From positions 117,207-181,206 of the forward strand of contig URLO01000001.1 in NCBI GenBank assembly GCA_900548625.1: a DNA stretch of 64,000 nt. The letters are read 5' to 3'. Positions 2,220 through 33,160 of this stretch are shown piece after piece. The DNA comes from an uncultured Eubacteriales bacterium. GTDB taxonomy: Bacteria; Bacillota; Clostridia; Oscillospirales; Oscillospiraceae. The notes under the pieces were generated by a model. It ran no database searches. It had not been told where the DNA came from and saw nothing but the letters and a program-made list of their open reading frames with translations. The translations under genes and the position numbers were made by a program. Every line of letters starts with the position of its first letter. Position 1 is the first letter of the stretch.

Positions 2220-2744
2220 TTATAACTTCGTCAGCAATTCCGCATGGCTATACCCCTTAACGCCCTTGGTCATCATGCCGAGGAAGTCATCACGCGAGAA
2301 ATCAGAGAGCCGGAATACTTCTTCAGGTTTCATTCCGAGCTGTTTGCCGATCTCCTGAACGGACTTGCCCTCGTCCAGCAGCCGCTTTACGATGGCTTTC
2401 ATCGGCTCAAGCAGATGTGTACCACGAGCACGGTTGTGTGTGACGGTGCCGTAAATATCCTCGGTCGCGTCATCATGCCGCACGATCACCACCGGCACCT
2501 TGCCTTTGAGCATGGTGTGCAGCGGCTCCTCTCCGGCCACGGTCCAGCGGTGAAAGCCGTCGATGATGGTGTAGTCGGGACGCACGACGATGGGAAGCGT
2601 CCAGCCATTGGTCATGATCGATTGCACCAGCAGTTTCAGATTTTCACGGTTGACCTTGTTGGGGTTGTAGTCATTGGGCTTGAGCTGCTCCCGGTCTACC
2701 CATTGCAGGGAGGATAACGGGGCGAACAGATCCGCGTCAGCCAT
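2220..2744 (-). CDS. ParB-like nuclease domain protein (IbrB-like)
   Basis: ParB N-terminal/Srx fold motifs (LQWVDREQLKPNDYNPNKV...IIDGFHRW). ATG at 2744 with GGGAGGTG RBS. Paired with the upstream PAPS-reductase-like gene. Confidence 0.65.
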   Translation of the reverse strand: MADADLFAPLSSLQWVDREQLKPNDYNPNKVNRENLKLLVQSIMTNGWTLPIVVRPDYTIIDGFHRWTVAGEEPLHTMLKGKVPVVIVRHDDATEDIYGTVTHNRARGTHLLEPMKAIVKRLLDEGKSVQEIGKQLGMKPEEVFRLSDFSRDDFLGMMTKGVKGYSHAELLTKL

Positions 2745-3891
2745 TTGCCTCACCTCCCTTCCGGAAGCGCTTGGCGTAATCGGCGTAGGCGCAGGATATG
2801 TCCTGATAGATGGCGCGCAGGGTGCGGAGCTTGGGATCTCCAGCAGTCAGACCGCCGTACATTTTCTTGTAGTCGCGCGGCCGCGCCATTCCGTCCATCT
2901 GAATGAACATCTTGCGGTACTGCTTGGCGATCTTGCGCTTATGCTCCGTATTGAAGAAGTCTCCCGGGCGGACGAACAGCATCTCCTTCAGGAGCGCACG
3001 GTAGTCCTTGGTGTCCTCGCCCTCCAGCTCCCGGCGCTTCCTTGTGGTGCGGTGGAACATTTCGCTGTCCCAGTACAGCATGGCAAGGTAGGCATTCGGC
3101 TCGCGCCGAAGGACGCGCTCCATGAGAGATGGGTCATATTCGCCCAGGTGTACCAGCACGGGTACGGTATCAACGGAGAAGAACTGCGACACGCGCAGCT
3201 GATTCCGATTGACGCCGACCTGATACATCTGCAGGTAGACCTCGGGGACTTCGATGCGCTGGTCTCGCAGGTACAGCCAGACGTCCGCCGTCTTCCAGTC
3301 GTAGATGGGATAGATGGTGTTCGTGCCGGTGATGCCCTTTGCGCCCATATTCAGTGCCGCCATGTATTGGAGCCGCTGAATGGACTCTGCCGCGCGGACG
3401 CCGGTGATCATGATGCCGTCCATCGTCACGCGAGGCAGGAAGGATTGATAGTTGTCGATCCTTGGCCGGAGCTGCGGGTGATTGCGGATGGCAAAGGGCG
3501 GCGGCTGCCGCACCCAAGCATCGCGCTTGCGTCGATCCCAGCAGACGAAGGTTTCATCGCTGGACAGCTCATTGAGACAGCTGAAATGCTTGACCTCGAT
3601 ACACCACCATTGAAACTTGGCACCGGCAAGCAGGAACTTCTTCCGCCACGCCTTGGTCGTTGCTTCAATGGAATCGAAGATTGCCTCCTCGTCCACGAAA
3701 AGGACGGTCAACTGCGAGGGATTGATCTCTCCAGCCTGGATCAGCTTATAGGTCAGGTCGGCAAGGACGATGCTGTCCTTGCCGCCGGAAAACGAGAGGT
3801 ATACGGGGACGCCGTTGGAAAATACGTTCTTGATCCGCTGGCGCGCCGCAGTCACAACGTCGATGTCTGAGCTGATGCGCTTTACAGCCAT
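2737..3891 (-). CDS. phosphoadenosine phosphosulfate (PAPS) reductase family protein (IbrA/DndC-like PP-loop ATPase)
   Basis: PP-loop motif SFSGGKDS near the N-terminus; 384 aa. Overlaps both flanking genes (translational coupling). Confidence 0.7.
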   Translation of the reverse strand: MAVKRISSDIDVVTAARQRIKNVFSNGVPVYLSFSGGKDSIVLADLTYKLIQAGEINPSQLTVLFVDEEAIFDSIEATTKAWRKKFLLAGAKFQWWCIEVKHFSCLNELSSDETFVCWDRRKRDAWVRQPPPFAIRNHPQLRPRIDNYQSFLPRVTMDGIMITGVRAAESIQRLQYMAALNMGAKGITGTNTIYPIYDWKTADVWLYLRDQRIEVPEVYLQMYQVGVNRNQLRVSQFFSVDTVPVLVHLGEYDPSLMERVLRREPNAYLAMLYWDSEMFHRTTRKRRELEGEDTKDYRALLKEMLFVRPGDFFNTEHKRKIAKQYRKMFIQMDGMARPRDYKKMYGGLTAGDPKLRTLRAIYQDISCAYADYAKRFRKGGEANG

Positions 3892-22973: not shown

Positions 22974-24542
22974 GTGGCGCTGTTGCCGAGAAAACCTGCA
23001 AAGCACCCGGCGAAGCCGAAGCGGGGCAAGAAGCTGGAAATCGAAGAGCCGGGCGTTCTCTATGGCCGGTACAGCAGCCACAACCAGAAGGACATTTCCG
23101 TAGAGCAGCAGTTCGAAAAGGGCTACGAGCTGGCGGCGGAGTATGGCATCAGGATCATTGACACCTATGCCGACCGCGCCGTTTCTGGCCGCACCGACAA
23201 GCGCCGTGACTTCCAGCGCATGATGACTGACGCTGCAAAAGGGAAGTTCCGCTATGTAATCGCGTGGAAGTCTAACCGCATGGGGCGCAATATGCTGGAG
23301 GCTCTGATCAACGAAGCTCGGCTTCAGGATCTGGGCGTTCGCGTTCTCTATGTGGAGGAGGATTTCGACGATACTGCGGCTGGACGCTTCGCCGCCCGCT
23401 CGATGATGAATGTCAACCAGTTCTATTCCGAGAACATGGCCGAGGACATCAAGCGCGGCCTATATGACAACGCCGCGAATTGCATGGTGGCGAACGGCCA
23501 TCTGCCCTACGGCTATAAAGCGGACGAAACGCTGCACTATGCCATCGACGAGCCGAAGGCTGCGGTTATCCGGGAGATATTCACTCGCGTTTCCTGCGGT
23601 GAGGCTTTCGTTGATATCATGGCCAGCCTGAATGTCCGGGGAATCAAGACCTCGTACGGTCGCCCGTGGGGGCGGTCGAGCTTTCAGAAGATCCTTTCCA
23701 ACGAACGGTATCGCGGCATCTATATCTACGGCGATGTCCGCAAAGAGGGCGGCATCCCGAGGATTATCAGCGACGAGCTTTACTTCAAGGTCCAGGAGGT
23801 GATCACCACGAAGAAGAATCCGCAAGGGCGTCACCGCGTCAATGGTGACTATCTGCTTACCGGCAAGCTGTTCTGCGGGCATTGTAAAAGCCCCATGACT
23901 GGCGTCTCCGGCACCGGACGCTCCGGCAACCTGCATTACTACTACGTCTGCCAGAAGCGTCGAACGGAAAAGACCTGCGATAAAAAGAATGTACGCCGAG
24001 ATGAAATTGAGCTGCAGGTCGCCCAGGCCATCAAAGACTATGCTCTGAAGGACGATGTTATCGAGTGGATCGCCGACAGCACGGTCGCCTACAATGAGCG
24101 CAAGGAAGCCGAGAGCAAGGTCGGCATTTTGGAAGACCAACTCGCCGGCACGGAGCATGGCAAAAAAAACATCATGTCCGCCATCGAGCAGGGCATCATC
24201 ACCGAAACCACGAAAAGCAGGCTGGTCGAGCTGGAGTCTGAGCGTGCTACCATCAAAGCTAATATCGCAGCGGCTCGGGCAGACATCGTGACTGTCAGCC
24301 GCGATGACATTATATCCGGCTTGGAGATGTTCCGAGATGGCGATGTTCACGATAAGAAGTACCAAGCGCGCCTATTTGACACATTCCTGGTCGCGGTGTA
24401 TGCTTATGACGATGATCTGCGGCTGGTGTTCAGCTTCTCCGGCAATAAAAATACAATCCAAATCCCAATAGAATCCGCAGTTAACGCAGTAGAGAATAAC
24501 GAGGCTGAGTGTTCGTTTAAGCTCTGCTCTGCTCCACCATAA
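22974..24542 (+). CDS. large serine recombinase (phage integrase)
   Basis: Resolvase catalytic domain (YGRYSS..., RD...R), recombinase domain, Zn-ribbon (CGHCKS...C...C) and coiled-coil. Lys-rich N-terminal extension. Start is GTG/TTG near 22974-22986. Confidence 0.85.
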   Translation: MALLPRKPAKHPAKPKRGKKLEIEEPGVLYGRYSSHNQKDISVEQQFEKGYELAAEYGIRIIDTYADRAVSGRTDKRRDFQRMMTDAAKGKFRYVIAWKSNRMGRNMLEALINEARLQDLGVRVLYVEEDFDDTAAGRFAARSMMNVNQFYSENMAEDIKRGLYDNAANCMVANGHLPYGYKADETLHYAIDEPKAAVIREIFTRVSCGEAFVDIMASLNVRGIKTSYGRPWGRSSFQKILSNERYRGIYIYGDVRKEGGIPRIISDELYFKVQEVITTKKNPQGRHRVNGDYLLTGKLFCGHCKSPMTGVSGTGRSGNLHYYYVCQKRRTEKTCDKKNVRRDEIELQVAQAIKDYALKDDVIEWIADSTVAYNERKEAESKVGILEDQLAGTEHGKKNIMSAIEQGIITETTKSRLVELESERATIKANIAAARADIVTVSRDDIISGLEMFRDGDVHDKKYQARLFDTFLVAVYAYDDDLRLVFSFSGNKNTIQIPIESAVNAVENNEAECSFKLCSAPP

Positions 24543-24746: not shown

Positions 24747-24776
24747 TTGAGCGAATTGCGCTGTGCTGAAATAATG
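24747..24776 (+). promoter_or_regulatory. putative sigma-70 promoter of the riboswitch leader
   Basis: TTGAGC-N17-AATAAT about 65 nt upstream of the P1 stem. Confidence 0.3.
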
Positions 24777-24838
24777 GAACATCGATAGAAATTCTTCACA
24801 TTTCATGCTACAATAAAAATCCAAGATCATAGAAAGAG

Positions 24839-25057
24839 TCTCAGGTTTGCCGCGCTGAGGGTGCGGCAATCAAACGGAATCGGGTGAGAGTCCCGGCGAA
24901 CTGGTCACTGTGAAGCTCCCGTGGAGGAGATTAGTCAGACACGCGCCTGAGAGAGCTACAAGAGCAGCCGCCAAGTCAACGGCCTGCGGACGATACTGTG
25001 CGCCCATTTTTAAGGGATACGTCCGCCATTACTGAAAGGTACTGCGGGCGTTTTTTG
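24839..25057 (+). ncRNA. cobalamin (AdoCbl) riboswitch-like leader with terminator
   Basis: P1 TCTCAGG...CCTGAGA; P2 hairpin TTGCCGC...GCGGCAA. Core CGGAATCGGGTGAGAGTCCCGGCGAACTGGTCACTGTGAAG matches the consensus GGGAA..GGTGAGAATCCC..GC.ACTGTGAGGG. GC hairpin + TTTTTT at ~25035-25057, then a second hairpin (acgtgtcgtaaag...ctttacgacacgtttt) to ~25105. Confidence 0.65.
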
Positions 25058-25292
25058 CGTAAAAAAACGTGTCGTAAAGCATTCTTTCCTTTACGACACG
25101 TTTTCGAGTTTCTTAACACCTGAAATTATATCCTATTAAAAAGAAAAGTCAACCTGTTTTGGAGAAAACCGTAGTTTTTTGTTGGGTATTTAGGCACATA
25201 CGTTCCAATATTTGAAATATAGCTGAAATTAGGCTGCAAAAAGGCATAGCTCTTTCGCTTAACGCCGTCAGAAGCGCCGTCAAGGAGGAACA

Positions 25293-26318
25293 ATGGCAAA
25301 GTGTGGAGAGAACATTTATAAACGCAAAGACGGAAGATGGGAAGGCCGCTTTATTCGCAGCCGCAGGGAAAATGGTCACGCGATATACGGTTATGTCTAT
25401 GGCCGGAGTTATACAGAATGCAAAGGCAAATTAAAGGAAGCCGCCATAGCGCCGCCTCGTATGATGTGCGGCTGTCGTCTGACGGCGAAAGAGCTTTTTT
25501 CTTCCCTGCTGCGGAAAAAATGCGCGGAGGTCAAACCATCTACCGCCCAGCGCTATCGCTTTTTGATTGAAAAACACATTCTCCCGGAACTGGGGCATCT
25601 CCGGGTCGAACAGCTGACGGCGAAAAAACTCCAAGCCTTCCTCCAACGAAAGCGTGTAAACGGAGGCCTGAAAGGCGGTGGGCTTTCGGTCAAAACCGTC
25701 CGGGACATCGGGACTCTGATAAAATCGGCGCTGAAATACGCACAAGCGGAGTTTTCGATCCCCTGTGATGCAGATGCGCTGCGGCTTCCGTCGCCTGCAC
25801 AACCGGATATTCGCGTTTTTACCGAAGATGAACTGCGGCGTATCGGCGAGCAGGTCACACGCCAGCCGCATTTGATGGAAATCGGCATACTGCTGGCGCT
25901 GAACACCGGTCTTAGAATTGGAGAATTGTGTGCGCTGCAACGGCAAGATGTCGATTTTGCTGCCGGAACCGTCTCTGTCCGCCACACGGCGCAGCGAATC
26001 AATTACGGCGGCAGGACGGAATTGGTCGTTCAAACACCGAAAAGTGCCGCTTCCAACCGCGTCATTCCCATTCCGGCTGGAATGCTGGCGCTGCTGCGGC
26101 AGTATGTATATGCCTTTGCACCGGGCGCGCAGCTGGAAGCCTACCGCACGATCACCCGGCAGTCCGATATGGTGCTGGCCGTCTATGACCCTGCATCGGC
26201 GCGCGGCGACGATACGGACGCGGCGATCCAATATGCGCGGGAGCTGAAGCGCCCCATCCTGAGTATCCACCCGGATACGCTGCGTACTAGCTGCCTGACT
26301 GAATTTGAGTTTATGTAA
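25293..26318 (+). pseudogene. tyrosine recombinase/integrase remnant (N-terminal arm-binding and core-binding regions; catalytic H-x-x-R...Y region absent)
   Basis: N-terminus YKRKDGRWEGRF is AP2-like arm-binding; box I R present (LRIGELCALQRQDVDF). The C-terminal 60 aa do not match HxLRHT...Y; no alternative frame supplies it. Confidence 0.5.
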
Positions 26319-26424
26319 ACCAGCACTTATTCAAAGATAAACTATCATTTTCTGCTCTTGTTCAAAAAGGTATTGCAAAAAACAGAAAGAATAGGTAGAA
26401 TAGAATCAAATTGCAGAGAGTTAT

Positions 26425-26469
26425 CGAGAAGGGTGTACACCCTTCTCGTCCGTAGGTACCTACGGACGA
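26425..26469. repeat. two adjacent 24-bp perfect palindromes
   Basis: cgagaagggtgtacacccttctcg and tcgtccgtaggtacctacggacga, overlapping by tcg; each equals its own reverse complement. Confidence 0.7.
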
Positions 26470-26954
26470 TTTCCTTCTGTAAAACTGAATATTGAGATAC
26501 CGTAATACACGCCGATTCCGCACACCCTCGGGCAGGATAGGCTCAGAAGAAGGCATTTATGCCGACACGAAACGGTGCTGTGCGCGTGAGGCCACGCCAA
26601 AGCGGTTTTGACCGCCGGGACGAAAGTCCGCCATTGCAGGGACGACCTGTGAGAAGGTAGGACGTGGGCGCAGGAGAAAAAATATCTCCCTAACGCAAGT
26701 CAGAAGATCTGTATTACCACGGCTTTTTCGCCGTGTAGGGTATGTGCAGCGGTGAGCGATTTCCTGTTGCATCCGGCATGATGTGCGTCATGCCGGTGTT
26801 TTGCCGCTGATTTCAGATTCTGAAATCGGCGTATTTTGCTTTATGGGCAAGGTGCGCCGGTTTTGATCGGGGATCGGCTTTTTTGCGCCGAAAAACCGGT
26901 GCGCCGAGCGGCGGCCTTCATATAGAGAAACAAGAAATTTACAGGAGGAAAAAC

Positions 26955-27329
26955 ATGAGGAAGAGAATTTTGTCGTTGCTTCTCATACTGGTGATGATCG
27001 TGGGGCTGCTGCCCACCGTCGCGCTGGCGAAAAATGATGACTTTACGGTCACCATTTCCATGGAGGGGCTGACACTCGGACAGGGCTACTACCTGGAGCC
27101 GAGAACATACACATTGGATCAGATCAACAAACTGGTCGAGGGCGAGCCCTGGGCCAGGACCTTTACCGCCGACGATCTGACGGCAGACGTTGTGACGATC
27201 GCGATGCTCAAGGATGCAAATCGCAAGTACACCAATACCGGCACGGTGCAGAGCGACTTCTATCTGTCCCGTGTCAGTGGGATTCCCGCGTACTCCGCTG
27301 CCGCAACAGCATTCCGCAGATCATTTTGA
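26955..27329 (+). CDS. N-terminal fragment of surface protein: signal peptide + first half of DUF4430 (transcobalamin-like B12-binding) domain
   Basis: ATG 26955 with GGAGG RBS; signal peptide MRKRILSLLLILVMIVGLLPTVALA. The domain is cut by a frame change at ~27320. Confidence 0.55.
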   Translation: MRKRILSLLLILVMIVGLLPTVALAKNDDFTVTISMEGLTLGQGYYLEPRTYTLDQINKLVEGEPWARTFTADDLTADVVTIAMLKDANRKYTNTGTVQSDFYLSRVSGIPAYSAAATAFRRSF

Positions 27330-30300
27330 AGAAAAGCGGCAAAACGGCAGAAGCGCTGACGGCAGACCCTGTTCAAAAGGAAGGCTGGCTCGGCGAGAGG
27401 GATTATAACAGCATGTCGGGCTGGATGTTTACGGCCCGGAACAGCATGCCGAATGTGGGCTGCGCCCAATTCAAGGTTCAAAGCGGCGATGTGATCCGCT
27501 GGCAGTTTTCGCTCTATGACTACGGTGCCGATCTTGGCTACGATAACAACTGGGGCACGGGAGCTGGTCCGTATTTTACAGCGGCGAACAAGGACGAACT
27601 GTGCCGGAAATACGCCGCGAGCACGGACGAAACGTTCCGCGCGAACGCGAAGACGGTGCTTGAAAATCTGACGGCAACGGAGGCGGATATCGCTGCCGCG
27701 CTCAAGGGCGAGACGCCCGAAATCTCCACCAAGCCGACCGGCATCAAAATCACGGCGCCAACAACAAAGCAAGCGGAAATCGGATACAATGAGCTGGAAA
27801 ACTTCAAGCCGGAACAGTTGGAGTATCACGTTCAGACGACGACGCAGAAAACAAGATGGATGGGGCCAATGACGGTAACTGTGGTGCATCCAGATGAAAA
27901 AGCCACGGTCAAGTTGGAAATTCAGCAAGATGCGGATGGCGGTACATCGACCGTAGACAGGACGGCTTCCGGTTCTGTAAACAATGCTATAAAAATCATG
28001 GCAACACAGCCGATGCAAACTTATCTGAGCAAACTGACTGTCAAGGTTGCCTCGCAGGGCGAAACGACAACGTATACGATCTGGCTGCATTCCGGTAAGC
28101 CATATCCTGTCACCAACCCGTCTTACACCTGGGACGGCGGCGAATGCGCGAAGGCAAATTATAAAACCGACAGGACGAAAAAGATTGTGCAGATCTTCCT
28201 TTCGGCGGATACGCCGGATGACGCGCTGCTTACCGTTGACCCCAAGCTCGGCTATCAGATCAAAACAACCTGGGACGGAAAGGTACAGCTGAAAGATGGT
28301 GCGGCAACCGTCAGCGCGATGGCTTATGTCGGCAATGCAGCCAACACCACCAATGTCACATTCCAGTTCCTGCGTGATCCCGATGTCTCCATCAAGAGCA
28401 TCCGCGCAAACAACACCGCGCTGACCAATGTAAAGGGCACGCAGGCGTCTCCCGCGTGGGTCTATCAGACCTATATAGAGGGTGATAAGCTGGAGCTGAA
28501 CGTGGTTCCAACCTCCGAATTCGCGACAGTCACGTATCAGAACGGGACACCCGATAAAAACGGCGTTATCGTATCCACGGCGACCGTGACGGCGGGCGAT
28601 GCACGCACCACCCGAACCTATACGGTGTACGGCTATCCGAAAACCGGCAGTTCGGACAAGCTGGCTGATTTGCAATTGTATCTCTGCCGGTTCGCTGCAT
28701 CGAGCTCGGAGTCTTCTAACGCCATCGCTCTGGATTTCGGCTTTGACCCGGACAAAACAGAATACAGCATCGAATTCCAGCGTCCCCAATACTATCAGCT
28801 TTATGCGCAGGCAATCGCCGCAAACGCGGAGTCGAAGATTACAGCGCGCACGGTGAACCGTACCGGCGACACACAGACCAACGATACTGTCGAGCTTTCG
28901 ACCGGGATGCTTCAGATTGTCAGCAACCTCAATGAATTTGATTATTGGGCAAAGCTGGTCATTACTGTGACGCCCACGGATGGCGAGCCTCGTGATTATA
29001 CGATTTATCTCAAGGACAAGGACCTACCGCTTTCTGCGGAGGCCGCGCTTTCCTCGCTCTCCTATCAGATCGGTACCGGTGAGGCAATCAGCGTGCCGGA
29101 CTTCAAGACCTCCAAGCGCGAGTACAGCGTAACGCTTCCGTACGGCACGGAGCAGGTTCGGCTGCTGCCGAAGACCAGTAATCCCGGCGCCGTCCTGTCC
29201 GGTGAAACAGAGCTGACACTGGTAAACGGCACGGCGGAGGCGGTCTTCAACATTACCTCTGCGGATGGAACGGTCAACAGCACCTATACAGTCCGTTTTA
29301 CCACAGCGGAACACTCCAAATATCTGTCCAGCCTGAGCTACAAGGTCGGCGCGGCGGAGCCCGCCGCTGTCGAGGGCTTTAACAAGGAAACAGATGCGTT
29401 TGCTGTCATTCTTCCGCAGGATACGGCAGACGGGCAGGAACTTACGCTTGTCGGCACTCCTGAAAACCCGGCAGCACAGGTATCCTCTCAGCCGGTTCAG
29501 GTCAGCGGCGGCAAGGCCGTAGCCACGATCACGGTGACGGATAACGAGCTCACACGCACCTACAGCGTCTATTTCTATGTCGGCGCAGTCCGTCAGGAAA
29601 ACAATGAGCTGGCCGACCTGCGCTTTGAAAGCGAGCAGCTGAAATCCAGCGAGCTGGATCAGTTTATCTCCGGCAAAACGGAATATACCCTCTATTTTAT
29701 GCCCAGCGGCACGGGAGAGGTCACGGACGGCACTATTACAGCGACACTCCCGGAGGGCAGCGACGCGGAAATTACTGTCCATTACCACAGAAATTCCTTC
29801 ACGCTCCCGCAGTGCGTCAATGAGACGCTGCAAAGCGGCGTTCCGTTCCAGATGACGAGCAATTCTACGCATCAGATTCTCAAGAGAAATACCCACCAGG
29901 TGGTAACAATTACCGTAACTCCGTCTGAGGGCGAACCGAAAAGCTACTCGCTGAACCTGATCAACGGCGACGGAAGCGTGGACATGGTCGATTTCAGTAT
30001 GCACATCCCGGAAATTGTTGTTCTCGACAAAGAAGGCAATGTGAAGGGTACGGTATCAGAGGGCAGTTGGAACATGTTCTTCCAGGACCGGGAGCGGACC
30101 TTCAATATTACACACGGCCTTGCTGAAACCGGCGATACGGTCAGAATCCGGTGCAATCTGGAGGACTACCTCGTTCATCCGGTACAGCCGTATTTCACGG
30201 GCATCCTCAGTGAGACGGAAGATATCACGGTTCCGATGACCTTTATCAACCAGAAGGGCGAGACCGGAACCAACTATTATACCTTCCACCTGTGCTCGGA

Positions 30301-33160
30301 GGTCGAATCCGTCCACACCTTCGAAGCAATCAGCTATCATGTAGGGGATGGTGCGGAGATCAGCATTCCGATGAGCAGCTTCCGCGCAGGCGGCAAGAAC
30401 GGCGATGACGACGTAATGGTCACAGACGATATTATCCTTCCGGAAGGCACGTCTGATTCCGAAGAAATCCAGATCACGACCATGCGCAGCATAAACGGTA
30501 GCATCAGCACATTTACGTACCATCTGGACAAGGGTGCGGTGCAGGCAAGCGTGACATGCCGCGCACGCTCCGGTGAAGGCACAGTCTACCGGATCAATTT
30601 CAAGGTTGCTTCGGCTACTGCGGCCAATGCGCAGCTTGCAATGGCAAATTACACTGTGAACGGCGGCGAGATACAGAATGTTCCGGATTTCGCATCCGAT
30701 GTCTACAGTTATCAGTGCCTTGTTCCGAGCCTGCAGGACGGCGATGAAGTCAAATTGACCGTACTTCCCAAATTCAGCGACGCAGCCGTAACGGGCACGC
30801 TGAGCGCAGCTGCGGAAAATGGCTATGTATATCTCGAAGCGAACGTAACCTCGGCAGACGGAACGGCCAGCCATACCTATGGTTTTGAATTCGCAGATCA
30901 TTTTGACGCTACAACGCAGAAGGGCCTCACCGACCTCACCTACAGCATCGGCAGCGAGACCACGCGCCGCAGCATCAAGGGTTTCAGCAGCAACGGCTCT
31001 CTCTTCACGGTTACACTGCCATATGGAACGCCGGATAACGAGACCATTCACTTCTATCCGACGCTTGGCAGCGCTTCGGACGCAGAGATCGTAGGTGATA
31101 CCGATATTCAGCTGGAAAACGGCAGCGGCATGCTGCGCCTCACGCTCAGCTACCCGCACGGGAAGCCTAAGACGATTTCGGTTACGATCAGGCGCGAGGG
31201 CAAGATCATGTCTGTCTATGAGTATCTGCCCATCGGCTCGCAGTATACCAACAAGAGCTTCGGCAGCTCGCCCATTGTCTATGACGGCACGCATAAGCTG
31301 ATCGCGCCGCCCAACAACTGGATGAACTGCCAGACCTGCGGCAACTTCGGCGGCTACATGACCTATAAGCTCACAAATCCGCTGAAAAATGACCCGGCAA
31401 ACCCCTACGGTATTGACTTCATCGTCTACGGCAACAGCCAGGGCGGCTACGGCTACGGCGAGCCCGCCAGCATCTGGGTCGCGCAGGACAAGGACAACGA
31501 CGGCCAGCCCGACAAGTGGTACGAGCTTGCCGGCAGCGCGCACTATGACGCGGAGACCACCTGGAACTATCAGGTCACGTACATCAAGGAAAACGACGGC
31601 TCCACCGCCTATGAAACCTCCAAGGGCGAGACCGGGGCGTTCCCGGGATATGAGTATCCGGACATCGACAGGTACGGCTCGCAGGGCGTGGTCGTTGACC
31701 CGGTCAAGATGACCCTCACCGGCACGCTGCTCGATGAAAAGACACGCGAGCCGCTCTTTGGCTACGGTGACGTGCACGCAAACGACGAAGGCGGCATCGA
31801 GACCCCGATGAACCCCTACCGCCCCGGCAGCGATCAGGACAGCTTCAGCGATGTCCACAACCGCGGCGACGCGATGGATATCTCCTGGGCCGTCGATGAA
31901 AACGGCCTGCCTGTCGAGCTTGACGAGATCAGCTTCATCAAGGCTGTCAACGCCTCGTTCGTGCTGCACTCGGCTTTCGGCGAACGCTCGGCAGAGATTT
32001 ATGTTATCGTGCCGCTCTATGGCAACGCAGACAAGGAGGCTGTTGGCCAGAGCGCCGAGCTTTCCGGCATCACGCTTGAGGACGCAAAGACCGGCGCGCA
32101 GACCGCATCGCTGCCCTTCAAGTCCGGCAAGTATGTTTATACGTTTGAGGCCTCTGCACTCGCAGACCAGACGCTCAAATTGAACGCTCCAGATGGCGCG
32201 AACGTGATCGTCAACAACGCGCATTATGACGAGGACGCCGGTTATCTGCTGAAAAACGCGATCCGGATCGCGGACGACACCACCATGCTCCGCATCGTGG
32301 TGCAGGAGGGCGAGAAGGAGCCGACGCTCTACTACCTGACCATCCGCGACAGCAGCAGTGCAAGGTGGACGCTCCGCTTTGACGCGAACGGCGGTCTGAT
32401 CGACGGGGAAGAAACGCTCACGCACAGCTACTATTCTGACCAGTCCGGCGAAAAGCTCCCGGTTCCCACGCGCGCGGGATATACCTTCCTCGGCTGGTAC
32501 GACGGCGAGACCCGCTACGAAGCGCTGACCGACGCGCTTGCCAGCGGCACGACGCTGACGGCAAAGTGGCAGGAAAGTAATGATACGCCCGTCCCGCCAG
32601 TCGGCCCGTCGAAGCCCTCCAAGCCCTCGACATCCGATACCAGCAAGGATAACCTCCCGTTCACGGATGTTGCATCCGGCAGCTGGTACTATGATGGTGT
32701 GAAGTATGCTTGCGACAACGGTCTGATGAACGGCACGTCCGCGAACGCGTTCAGCCCGAACGCCGACACGACCCGCAGCATGATCGTCACGATCCTTGCC
32801 CGTATGGAGGGCGTCAATACCTCCGGCGGCGCGACATGGTACACCGCTGGCCGTGCATGGGCGATGGAAAACGGCATTTCGGACGGCACGAATATGGAGG
32901 GCAAGATCACCCGTGAGCAGCTTGCCGCCATGCTCTACCGCTACGCGAAGATGAAGGGTTACGACGTTTCCGCATCCGCTTCCCTCTCCGGCTACACCGA
33001 CGCTTCCAGCGTTTCCGGCTGGGCGAAGGAAGCCATGCAGTGGGCGGTCGGCTCCGGCCTCATCCAGGGCAGCAACAATGCGCTGACCCCGCAGGCCAAC
33101 GCCTCCCGCGCGCAGATCGCCACGATCCTCATGCGCTTTGCGCAGAACATCGCAAAGTAA
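27326..33160 (+). CDS. giant cell-surface protein: rest of DUF4430 domain, >15 cadherin-like/Ig-like beta-sandwich repeats, Listeria-Bacteroides repeat, three C-terminal SLH domains
   Basis: GWMFTARNSMPNVGCAQFKVQSGDVIRWQFSLYDYGADLG (DUF4430 C-half). Repeated L..LSY.VG.GE...V.GF.....Y.V.LP motifs. GYTFLGWYDGET (Flg_new). SLH motifs x3 at the C-terminus. Hairpin ggaggggcggatcatccgcccctcc + TTTTTT terminator at 33181-33212. Confidence 0.75.
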   Translation: MKKSGKTAEALTADPVQKEGWLGERDYNSMSGWMFTARNSMPNVGCAQFKVQSGDVIRWQFSLYDYGADLGYDNNWGTGAGPYFTAANKDELCRKYAASTDETFRANAKTVLENLTATEADIAAALKGETPEISTKPTGIKITAPTTKQAEIGYNELENFKPEQLEYHVQTTTQKTRWMGPMTVTVVHPDEKATVKLEIQQDADGGTSTVDRTASGSVNNAIKIMATQPMQTYLSKLTVKVASQGETTTYTIWLHSGKPYPVTNPSYTWDGGECAKANYKTDRTKKIVQIFLSADTPDDALLTVDPKLGYQIKTTWDGKVQLKDGAATVSAMAYVGNAANTTNVTFQFLRDPDVSIKSIRANNTALTNVKGTQASPAWVYQTYIEGDKLELNVVPTSEFATVTYQNGTPDKNGVIVSTATVTAGDARTTRTYTVYGYPKTGSSDKLADLQLYLCRFAASSSESSNAIALDFGFDPDKTEYSIEFQRPQYYQLYAQAIAANAESKITARTVNRTGDTQTNDTVELSTGMLQIVSNLNEFDYWAKLVITVTPTDGEPRDYTIYLKDKDLPLSAEAALSSLSYQIGTGEAISVPDFKTSKREYSVTLPYGTEQVRLLPKTSNPGAVLSGETELTLVNGTAEAVFNITSADGTVNSTYTVRFTTAEHSKYLSSLSYKVGAAEPAAVEGFNKETDAFAVILPQDTADGQELTLVGTPENPAAQVSSQPVQVSGGKAVATITVTDNELTRTYSVYFYVGAVRQENNELADLRFESEQLKSSELDQFISGKTEYTLYFMPSGTGEVTDGTITATLPEGSDAEITVHYHRNSFTLPQCVNETLQSGVPFQMTSNSTHQILKRNTHQVVTITVTPSEGEPKSYSLNLINGDGSVDMVDFSMHIPEIVVLDKEGNVKGTVSEGSWNMFFQDRERTFNITHGLAETGDTVRIRCNLEDYLVHPVQPYFTGILSETEDITVPMTFINQKGETGTNYYTFHLCSEVESVHTFEAISYHVGDGAEISIPMSSFRAGGKNGDDDVMVTDDIILPEGTSDSEEIQITTMRSINGSISTFTYHLDKGAVQASVTCRARSGEGTVYRINFKVASATAANAQLAMANYTVNGGEIQNVPDFASDVYSYQCLVPSLQDGDEVKLTVLPKFSDAAVTGTLSAAAENGYVYLEANVTSADGTASHTYGFEFADHFDATTQKGLTDLTYSIGSETTRRSIKGFSSNGSLFTVTLPYGTPDNETIHFYPTLGSASDAEIVGDTDIQLENGSGMLRLTLSYPHGKPKTISVTIRREGKIMSVYEYLPIGSQYTNKSFGSSPIVYDGTHKLIAPPNNWMNCQTCGNFGGYMTYKLTNPLKNDPANPYGIDFIVYGNSQGGYGYGEPASIWVAQDKDNDGQPDKWYELAGSAHYDAETTWNYQVTYIKENDGSTAYETSKGETGAFPGYEYPDIDRYGSQGVVVDPVKMTLTGTLLDEKTREPLFGYGDVHANDEGGIETPMNPYRPGSDQDSFSDVHNRGDAMDISWAVDENGLPVELDEISFIKAVNASFVLHSAFGERSAEIYVIVPLYGNADKEAVGQSAELSGITLEDAKTGAQTASLPFKSGKYVYTFEASALADQTLKLNAPDGANVIVNNAHYDEDAGYLLKNAIRIADDTTMLRIVVQEGEKEPTLYYLTIRDSSSARWTLRFDANGGLIDGEETLTHSYYSDQSGEKLPVPTRAGYTFLGWYDGETRYEALTDALASGTTLTAKWQESNDTPVPPVGPSKPSKPSTSDTSKDNLPFTDVASGSWYYDGVKYACDNGLMNGTSANAFSPNADTTRSMIVTILARMEGVNTSGGATWYTAGRAWAMENGISDGTNMEGKITREQLAAMLYRYAKMKGYDVSASASLSGYTDASSVSGWAKEAMQWAVGSGLIQGSNNALTPQANASRAQIATILMRFAQNIAK

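Follow-up and report, generated by a model that had tools for sequence, protein, structure and literature searches.

A divergent cobalamin riboswitch beside a decayed recombinase-carrying inverton in an uncultured human-gut Oscillospiraceae bacterium

Introduction

What does a vitamin B12 sensor control when the first gene behind it is not a B12 gene? This question is raised by a 64,000-nt stretch of DNA from an uncultured Eubacteriales bacterium of the family Oscillospiraceae (assembly GCA_900548625.1, contig URLO01000001.1, positions 117,207 to 181,206), referred to here as the window. It holds a leader resembling a cobalamin riboswitch, here named RS1, followed by a truncated tyrosine recombinase gene and then by the gene for a giant surface protein with a DUF4430 domain. 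An earlier note, made from the letters alone, proposed that an integrative element had been inserted between the riboswitch and the DUF4430 gene and had then decayed, orphaning the regulator. Comparison with related loci points elsewhere. The account considered probable is that RS1 is a genuine, divergent riboswitch bordering an invertible segment (an inverton) that carries its own recombinase and that is dead in the window, and the least certain part of this account is that RS1 gates transcription into the invertible cassette.

A divergent cobalamin riboswitch with a predicted promoter and terminator

24786..24814, plus strand: RS1 leader promoter, TAGAAA-17-TACAAT, with the extended -10 element TGcTACAAT (consensus scan)
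24826..24964, plus strand: RS1, class-II-like aptamer of a cobalamin riboswitch, P6 shortened (RF00174 match and conserved core)
25019..25056, plus strand: T1, hairpin ACGUCCGC...GCGGGCGU and U6 run that form the predicted intrinsic terminator in the expression platform of RS1 (folds)

RS1 is a genuine but divergent and marginal cobalamin riboswitch, with a predicted promoter and intrinsic terminator of its own (24786-25056). In a scan of 331 nt, it matches the Rfam family RF00174 (Cobalamin) over the full length of the model (positions 1-189), with 33.2 bits against a gathering score of 31.5 and an E value of 5.7e-07. The aptamer that had been noticed in this leader is thereby confirmed, with its core GGGTGAGAGTCCCGGCGAACTGGTCACTGTGAAG at 24882-24915 and both P1 and P2 in place. 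P1 comprises 8 bp (UCUCAGGU/GCCUGAGA), P2 7 bp (UUGCCGC/GCGGCAA), and P4 4 bp, and the core motifs GGUGAGAGUCC and CACUGU are both present. The P6 extension is a hairpin of 15 nt, compared with 66 nt in the model, which gives the aptamer a class-II-like appearance and makes the label AdoCbl, used in the earlier note, a tentative one. The terminator that had been reported after the aptamer is found as well, in the form of the T1 hairpin (25019-25051) and the U6 run next to it.

The Rfam check suggested by the earlier note gave an answer that depends on the length scanned. The match exceeds the gathering score in the 331-nt scan, but no cobalamin match was returned by the default-filter Rfam scan of the whole window or by permissive scans of 2.6 kb and 1.25 kb, so that the absence of an Rfam hit would have been a false negative. 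The speed filters of Rfam drop the above-threshold aptamer, both here (24826-24964) and in the related contig L002 (3391-3530), in scans of at least about 1.2 kb, and routine annotation would consequently leave RS1 unmarked.

The core of RS1 is invariant in 24 unique sequences. Substitutions are few and all compatible with the fold: P2 shows a compensatory change from C-G to U-A, and the changes in P6 are confined to the loop. At 97% identity among the sequences, there is too little covariation for a statistical assessment. The stem of T1 alternates between U.G and U-A from one lineage of the module to another, with the U-run kept, and the TGnTAYAAT element of the promoter is retained in all loci of lineages I and II, even where the upstream DNA differs. 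Within lineage I, the DNA of RS1 is conserved at 93.7-100%, compared with 84-100% for the recombinase gene, and RS1 always lies at most 20 nt from the left recombination site described below.

An invertible cassette between riboswitch and surface-protein genes

The relatives of this locus were gathered in several ways. A degenerate riboswitch pattern retrieved two IMG/VR contigs from one metagenome, L010 and L011; a metagenome scan with the pattern of the recombination site gave 42 human-gut loci; and a scan of a genome collection with the recombinase gave two loci only. The order of the module in these relatives is a promoter with RS1, a lox-like site, a cassette of 1.4 kb, an inverted copy of the site, a second leader of about 230 nt (L2) with a terminator, and genes for secreted proteins. 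The cassette itself holds a predicted outward sigma-70 promoter and the gene for a tyrosine recombinase of 372 aa.

The contig L011 has the arrangement of the window but with an intact 372-aa recombinase (PF00589, 99 bits, positions 2-170 of 172). Its left site reads GTCGTAAAG-CATTCTTTC-CTTTACGAC and its right site GTCGTAAAG-GAAAGAATG-CTTTACGAC, that is, perfect inverted repeats of 30 nt with an asymmetric core, which identifies them as lox/FRT-like sites. In relatives, this second, inverted copy (core GAAAGAATG) is found about 1414 bp from the left site. L010, from the same metagenome, is 100% identical to L011 in the flanks and in the interior, with the interior inverted. The junctions of the inversion are base-exact at CTTTACGACA|. 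A flipped cassette is also found in L013, a species-representative metagenome-assembled genome of an uncultured Oscillospiraceae bacterium, where it stands beside a giant DUF4430 gene 94.7% identical to that of the window.

The orientation seen in the window, with the promoter of the cassette pointing away from the surface-protein genes (the cargo), is called here state A, and the one with the promoter facing the cargo is called state B. RS1 and L2 are co-oriented in all 42 metagenome loci, with the cassette between them either way round. Some 16 of the contigs show state A and some 19 show state B, and both states are represented in three near-identical lineages. A cassette found in either orientation, with its own recombinase and promoter on board, is an invertible phase-variation switch, and the locus family is an inverton, a segment flanked by inverted repeats that occurs in both orientations in natural populations.

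These findings do not bear out the insertion of an integrative element that would have orphaned the riboswitch. In about 45 related contigs the recombinase lies between inverted lox-like sites, in both orientations, and where the earlier note had looked to synteny in relatives, these keep the same spacing with an intact gene for the 372-aa recombinase in between. Given the intact recombinase, the inverted sites, and the two orientations, the recombinase is the engine of a native invertible switch and not an intruder.

The predicted outward promoter and a proposed logic of the switch

25067..25101, no strand assigned: left recombination site, lox/FRT-like, with 13-bp arms ACGTGTCGTAAAG/CTTTACGACACGT and the asymmetric 9-bp core CATTCTTTC (second copy in relatives)
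25125..25152, minus strand: Pout, outward sigma-70-type promoter, TTGACT-16-TATAAT, 11 of 12 consensus positions (scans; hexamers conserved)

Pout is the sole strong consensus promoter in the module and exits the cassette through the recombinase-proximal site; in the window, it is directed away from the DUF4430 gene. Five lineages, the most distant of which has a recombinase identity of 38% (in Ruminococcus), share its position and hexamers, with a spacer that varies. A U-tract whose presence after the site depends on the orientation is conserved over the same range.

The site itself folds into a hairpin with an energy of -20.5 to -24 kcal/mol. On the minus strand, the left site is followed by T7, which makes it a predicted terminator for Pout in the orientation of the window, placed back-to-back with T1 of RS1. 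The hairpin at 25058-25103 had been considered as a bidirectional terminator, a candidate that was set aside since this element is primarily the recombination site and doubles as a minus-strand terminator.

An ON and OFF logic can be inferred from these elements. In state B, the transcript from Pout would pass the site hairpin, there followed by CAAAUGACC and no U-tract, and would enter L2 and the cargo (ON). In state A, the same hairpin (-24 kcal/mol) followed by U6-7 would act as an intrinsic terminator (OFF).

The locked copy in the window

25293..26128, plus strand: truncated tyrosine recombinase gene, residues 1-278 of 372 (Pfam, alignment to the L011 protein)
26129..26487, no strand assigned: foreign segment replacing the 3' end of the recombinase gene, the right-hand site, and a further 57 bp (no homology to intact modules)

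The open reading frame (ORF) that follows RS1 (25293-26318, 341 aa) is a truncated tyrosine recombinase, as had been recognized: it matches PF00589 at profile positions 2-59 of 172 only, and is fused in frame to a fragment resembling YpsA/SLOG proteins (26127-26318). Aligned with the intact L011 protein, it is in register and identical up to residue 278. It keeps the catalytic Arg and Lys, while the HxxR motif, the second His, and the Tyr nucleophile are missing (HSTRH, LLGHS, and RRYMH). At the DNA level, homology to the intact modules ends at 26128 and resumes at 26488, 57 bp past the expected right-hand site. The 360 bp of foreign DNA in between encode the YpsA/SLOG-like C-terminal fragment and contain a promoter-like sequence, TTGCAA-17-TAGAAT (26373-26401), and hairpins (26421-26469). 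The same segment is found in L002 and L033, and its last 88 bp or so also in L018, where they adjoin phage-like DNA. Thus, of the 1.9 kb that had been taken for mobile-element debris, these 360 bp (26129-26487) are indeed foreign, but the remainder is native to the locus.

The recombination site is present as one copy in the 64 kb, with up to 3 mismatches allowed. With a truncated recombinase and a single site, the switch of the window is dead and locked in state A, with Pout facing RS1, and this copy is a locked, decayed derivative of the inverton. Further loci locked by deletion are L002 and L033, like the window in state A, L018 and L020 in state B, and L041 and L048, with an internal deletion. 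The promoter-like TTGCAA-17-TAGAAT (26373-26401) is directed at L2 and the DUF4430 gene, and could drive the cargo in locked strains where that gene is intact (L002, L004).

A second structured leader upstream of the cargo

26488..26722, plus strand: L2, conserved multi-helix RNA domain, P1 formed by GUAAUACA (26502-26509) and UGUAUUAC (26710-26717) (consensus fold)
26805..26840, plus strand: hairpin and U-run 3' of L2, presumed expression-platform terminator (terminator scan)

Beyond the place of the right-hand site, the module continues with L2. The consensus fold of its lineage-I copies has 59 pairs, in which 99.5% of the cells are paired, compared with 33-46% in slid registers, and none of 500 shuffles reaches its covariation score. 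When lineages II to IV are added, 19 of 61 pairs show double-sided compensatory changes, P1 included. The terminator hairpin is kept in all lineage-I copies, and further hairpins with U-runs flank it in the window (26773-26796 and 26856-26878). L2 accompanies this type of cassette and cargo everywhere except in L012 (nhmmer, 31-448 bits). As an RNA of about 230 nt with its terminator, it is found in four recombinase lineages, with copies in the window (26488-26840), L011 (3720-4060), L059 (5281-5622), L067 (5317-5716), L066 (3135-3474), and, on the minus strand, L056 (3261-3660) and L061 (3276-3660).

The relation of L2 to the cobalamin family is less clear-cut. Its matches to RF00174 are full-length but fall below the gathering score of 31.5: the copy of the window reaches 12.5 bits, and that of L061, which diverges most, 15.9 bits (E 0.071); the L2 of L011 gives no RF00174 match at E<=5. 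The likeness to the family consists of the P1/P2 topology, a GCCAUUG-hairpin-GAGAAGG element, and a B12-box-like AAGUCAGAAGA, but the GGUG..UCC hairpin of RF00174 is missing. L2 was also considered as the 'real' cobalamin riboswitch of the DUF4430 gene, a candidate that was rejected because all matches are sub-threshold, and for the same reason it cannot be filed as RF00174. From its fold and covariation, L2 is a solid candidate for a cis-regulatory RNA, and possibly a cobalamin-related variant or a new riboswitch. Its value as a well-supported structured RNA candidate holds regardless of the role of RS1.

Giant surface proteins with a transcobalamin-like domain

26955..33160, plus strand: giant surface-protein gene with signal peptide, DUF4430, cadherin-like, Flg_new, and SLH domains; pseudogene (ORFs, Pfam)

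The gene behind L2 does start at 26955, as had been proposed, but it is no longer an intact single gene: a deletion of 1 nt (AAA to AA) near 27305 splits it into frames of 124 aa (26955-27329) and 1944 aa (27326-33160). In L002 and L004 the DUF4430/SLH gene is intact and encodes 2082 aa. The same split into 124 and 1944 aa occurs in contigs from two samples (L001, L005). With the recombinase and its inverton decayed and the DUF4430 gene frameshifted, RS1 itself is intact in the window but probably left with no working target. RS1 may thus be functionally orphaned in this strain after all, through the decay of its most probable target, the recombinase and the inverton.

Two arrangements of cargo are found in the family. 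One consists of a secreted protein of about 690 aa followed by an SLH protein of about 1945 aa with an internal DUF4430 domain; the other is a single protein of about 2080 aa with an N-terminal DUF4430 domain and cadherin-like, Flg_new, and SLH domains. DUF4430 and SLH domains are present in the cargo of every variant. The DUF4430 family (PF14478) is matched with 32.2-33.3 bits by cargo of the window type and with 30.9 bits by cargo of the L011 type, at a gathering score of 23.8.

DUF4430 corresponds to the C-terminal domain of the transcobalamin/intrinsic factor family of B12 binders (PMC4350170). A PDB sequence search with the DUF4430 region of the cargo gave no match, and a fold search was needed. 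The N-terminal domain was modelled with a pLDDT of 79.9, and the top 19 PDB fold matches of this model (foldseek) are transcobalamin, intrinsic factor, haptocorrin, and the Ruminococcus gnavus structure 3u7z, with probabilities up to 0.99, TM scores of 0.60-0.66 against the isolated beta domain, and E values of about 1e-2. The predicted fold of the cargo domain thus matches the B12-binding beta domain of transcobalamin and intrinsic factor. The DUF4430 link drawn in the earlier note holds across the cargo variants. The homologues of the DUF4430 N-terminal region are all short and at most 46% identical, and were of no use for synteny.

What RS1 may control

The favoured role of RS1, which is also the least certain part of this work, would be to control, in response to B12, how much transcription passes into the cassette from the left, with the expression of the recombinase as its main target. 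In state A, the recombinase gene is the first ORF on the same strand 3' of RS1 and has a strong ribosome-binding site, and consensus scans found no plus-strand promoter between the left site and this ORF. The lack of a consensus promoter of its own, together with this position, is what favours the recombinase as the target. Read-through from RS1 would be sense to the recombinase in state A, and antisense to it and co-directional with the cargo in state B, such that low B12 would favour and stabilize the ON state.

Several observations weigh against this proposal or against the elements on which it is built. RS1 scores just 1.7 bits over the gathering score and is lost under the default filters of Rfam; it has a degenerate B12 box (AGUCAGACACGCGCC), and in P3 one of the 3 pairs is missing. 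The switch can do without the aptamer: two lineages of about 50% identity at the same tmRNA locus (L059, L067) have lost it by deletion but retain the promoter, a remnant of the B12 box and of the 3' strand of P1, the terminator, and the site; in L033 and L065, an inverted-repeat insertion of about 70 bp disrupts it; and the lineages at other loci lack it. No promoter was found for the expression of the recombinase in state B. On the plus strand, the site hairpin is followed by UUUUC and could itself halt read-through from RS1 in state A. The promoters and terminators are consensus or energy predictions, and the heterogeneity of orientation is deduced from assembled contigs.

The insertion in L033 (about 560-640) and L065 (355-440), corresponding to about position 24838 of the window, has the terminal inverted repeats GTATCTGAAAACT / AGTTTTCAGATAC. 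This miniature element breaks the 5' strand of P1, an independent route to the inactivation of the riboswitch.

The main rival to the recombinase as the target is direct, long-range control of the cargo, in which RS1 chiefly governs the surface-protein operon by read-through of about 1.9 kb across the cassette and L2, and the inverton adds a B12-independent promoter in state B. The constant co-orientation of RS1, L2, and cargo would fit such control, as would the lack of a U-tract after the right-hand site in either state and after the left-hand site in state B, and a transcobalamin-like domain is a plausible B12-regulated function. However, read-through of this kind would need to get past T1, the site hairpin (with UUUUC in state A), 1.1 kb of recombinase gene, and the terminator of L2, which would already gate the cargo; furthermore, lineages with no RS1 would express similar cargo from the inverton and L2 alone. 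This explanation is therefore judged unlikely. An original position of RS1 directly 5' of the DUF4430 gene, later interrupted by an integrative element that carried a tyrosine integrase and decayed, is more improbable still. The truncated recombinase joined to foreign DNA in the window does look like the remains of such an event, and the occurrence of cassette, L2, and cargo with no RS1 at other loci shows that RS1 and the cassette are separable, so that an ancient placement of the cassette between the two is possible. Against it, every relative that has RS1 carries an invertible, intact cassette between RS1 and cargo, and no locus was found with RS1 directly 5' of a DUF4430 gene. In all lineages, a conserved leader of its own, L2, precedes the cargo; purifying selection acts on RS1 where it now lies; and a recombinase that sits between inverted rather than direct repeats and flips in place behaves as an invertase and not as an integrase.

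The remaining two explanations concern the nature of RS1 itself. It might be no functional cobalamin sensor, either as a chance or decayed match or as a leader that serves through its terminator alone. The score barely over the threshold, the degenerate B12 box and P3, and the retention of promoter, terminator, and site with no aptamer in lineage II would all be expected then, but the match is full-length (model positions 1-189, E 5.7e-07), 24 unique sequences share an unchanged core although the DNA nearby diverges to 84%, P2 shows a compensatory change, and the genomic association with a cargo resembling B12 binders would be left aside; there is accordingly little probability in this explanation. 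Non-coding RNAs controlled by B12 riboswitches exist in Enterococcus and Listeria, and these precedents, together with the discrete transcript of about 230 nt that B12-bound RS1 and T1 would produce, speak for RS1 as a standalone B12-responsive small RNA or sponge, the alternative offered in the earlier note. Nevertheless, no target complementarity or protein-binding motif was identified in it, the aptamer is lost in sister lineages that keep the promoter, the terminator, and the site, and RS1 is invariably at most 20 nt from a recombination site, which indicates a role in cis. A free-standing RNA is thus scarcely probable.

If RS1 does modulate the recombinase, as favoured here, the nutrient status of the cell would act directly, at the molecular level, on the bias of a switch, with relevance to how gut bacteria compete for B12. 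Most descriptions of phase variation present it as stochastic. A more ambitious version of this proposal, in which B12 scarcity, through RS1 and the recombinase, would bias the population towards giant transcobalamin-like S-layer proteins that capture B12, and in which L2 would be a new class of cobalamin-related riboswitch for the same genes, is speculative and regarded as doubtful.

Wider occurrence of the recombinase and its cassettes

Four further lineages have pairs of sites 1372-1407 nt apart, with conserved arms and lineage-specific cores of 8-9 bp. The recombinase family comprises 6025 proteins at E<=1e-40, in many clusters of which the longest contig measures about 1.45 kb. One of these contigs, L057, has 1467 bp and starts and ends exactly in the two inverted sites. 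Contigs of about 1.45 kb that end at the sites are attributed to assemblies breaking at inverted repeats when both orientations coexist, and invertons of this kind, with a recombinase on board, would then be widespread and a cause of fragmented assemblies. Among the recombinase homologues P0046-P0150 in gut metagenomes, many clusters have a longest contig of 1.43-1.47 kb. This large family of tyrosine-recombinase invertons of about 1.4 kb, with thousands of homologues, is likely to be missed by tools designed for short invertons and by assemblers that break at repeats.

The intact recombinases combine PF00589 with an N-terminal SAM-like/arm-type region. Repeats of GCCGTCA are placed just 5' of the recombinase start codon, within the ORF, and just 3' of the stop codon, and are kept at about 50% protein identity (window 25264-25270 and 25276-25282; L011 2404-2420, 2629-2646, 2764-2780, and 3560-3576; equivalents in L059 and L061). 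It may be that the N-terminal domain of the recombinase binds them as arm-type sites.

The same cassette design is found in another genus. An uncultured Ruminococcus sp. (L012, 7778-9179) has a recombinase of 38% identity between inverted repeats of 37 nt, of the GTCGCTTAG..CTTAGCGAC type, and an outward promoter TTGACT-17-TAAAAT, with a protein of 186 aa and a secreted protein of 1190 aa encoded downstream; neither a riboswitch nor L2 was found at this locus. In L067, an IS110-family transposase gene (2506-3681) lies within a lineage-II cassette and brings the distance between the sites to about 2.9 kb. In lineage IV (L061-L064, 5263-5805, minus strand), an intact YpsA/SLOG-family gene adjoins the cassette, and this gene, together with the fragment in the window, hints at recombination between paralogous switch loci.

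Genomic setting

24527..24539, plus strand: 3'-terminal 13 nt of the tmRNA gene, attR core and prophage boundary (homology to L002)

This composite control region sits just 3' of the tmRNA gene in a group of human-gut Oscillospiraceae. Exact-protein look-ups provided strains that carry the upstream prophage as well as strains that lack it. In the prophage-free order, smpB is followed by a peptidyl-prolyl isomerase (PPIase) gene, the tmRNA gene, two terminator hairpins, the promoter, the riboswitch, the gene for the 341-aa chimera, and the DUF4430 gene. The homology of the window to the prophage-free L002 starts at 24527, which corresponds to the 3' end of a 145-bit tmRNA in L002; of the tmRNA gene, the window holds the last 13 nt and not the body. 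A homology that begins with these 13 nt identifies positions 1-24542 as a serine-recombinase prophage integrated at the 3' end of the tmRNA gene. This prophage-like region encodes a large serine recombinase (22974-24542, PHROG integrase), whose stop codon overlaps the attR core CTCTGCTCCACCA, as well as a ParB-like protein and a PAPS reductase. The DNA upstream of the module in L011 had been considered as proof that RS1 travels with the module to other loci, an argument that was dropped since the locus is again that of the tmRNA gene, occupied in L011 by a different mobile element.

Comparison with known systems

As a riboswitch, RS1 shares P1, P2, P4, the core, and a transcription-terminator platform with the short-P6, class-II-like forms of RF00174. 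It differs from typical members of the family in having CGGAA for GGGAA, a degenerate B12 box, and a P6 of 15 nt, and in being followed directly by a recombination site and a recombinase gene instead of a gene for B12 transport or biosynthesis.

Among invertible switches, a similar layout is that of the H segment of Salmonella with its invertase Hin, and the Gin, Cin, and Pin type in general, where a segment of about 1 kb carries the recombinase gene and an outward promoter that reads into a surface-protein operon in one orientation. The presence of the recombinase and the outward promoter inside the invertible segment is common to both. Hin, however, is a serine invertase that acts on hix sites with a Fis-bound enhancer, unlike the tyrosine recombinase (PF00589) and the lox/FRT-like sites described here. 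Switches of the fimS type share the tyrosine recombinase, the inversion of a promoter, and the control of a surface structure, but there FimB and FimE invert a promoter-bearing element of about 300 bp from genes that lie outside it. The recombinase gene described here lies inside the segment, and its own transcriptional context therefore changes with each flip.

To our knowledge, the c-di-GMP riboswitch of Clostridioides difficile is the only well-studied riboswitch that shares a leader with an invertible switch. In the flgB leader of this species, the c-di-GMP riboswitch Cd1 is located upstream of the flagellar switch inverted by RecV (PMC7446863, PMC5914908). Both systems place a riboswitch and a terminator between a promoter and an invertible element, control surface genes of a gut Firmicute, and use a tyrosine recombinase. 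The flgB switch responds to c-di-GMP, measures about 150 bp, contains no promoter, and is inverted by a recombinase encoded elsewhere; in contrast, the ligand here would be B12, both a recombinase gene and a predicted promoter lie within the segment of 1.4 kb, and beyond it stands a second structured leader. In cwpV, also from C. difficile, an intrinsic terminator forms in one orientation only (Emerson et al. 2009, as related in PMC5914908). The expression of a cell-wall or surface protein depends on orientation in both cases, with the U6-7 following the hairpin here only when the promoter faces away. As cwpV is described in that account, its promoter is outside the switch and its terminator within the inverted leader, whereas here it is the promoter that is carried along by the inversion, and the U-tract stays in place in the flanking DNA.

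With regard to the cargo, surface capture of B12 is known from the BtuG proteins of Bacteroides (PMC6143338), which are unrelated beta-propeller lipoproteins, unlike the SLH-anchored Gram-positive proteins of about 2000 aa proposed here as putative B12 binders. The DUF4430 beta domain of transcobalamin and intrinsic factor (PMC4350170) is the feature shared with the cargo, in this case next to a B12 riboswitch.

In the searchable literature, no paper was found that joins a cobalamin riboswitch with an invertible element, nor was any that describes such a riboswitch together with a tyrosine-recombinase inverton complete in itself, a second structured leader, and S-layer proteins resembling transcobalamin. 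In this locus, a vitamin-sensing riboswitch abuts an inverton for very large transcobalamin-like surface proteins in uncultured Oscillospiraceae that are common in the human gut. For annotation, this means that an apparent orphan riboswitch with a truncated integrase beside it can be what is left of a regulatory switch and not mobile-element debris. The single parts of the system are all of known kinds, and it is their combination that appears new.

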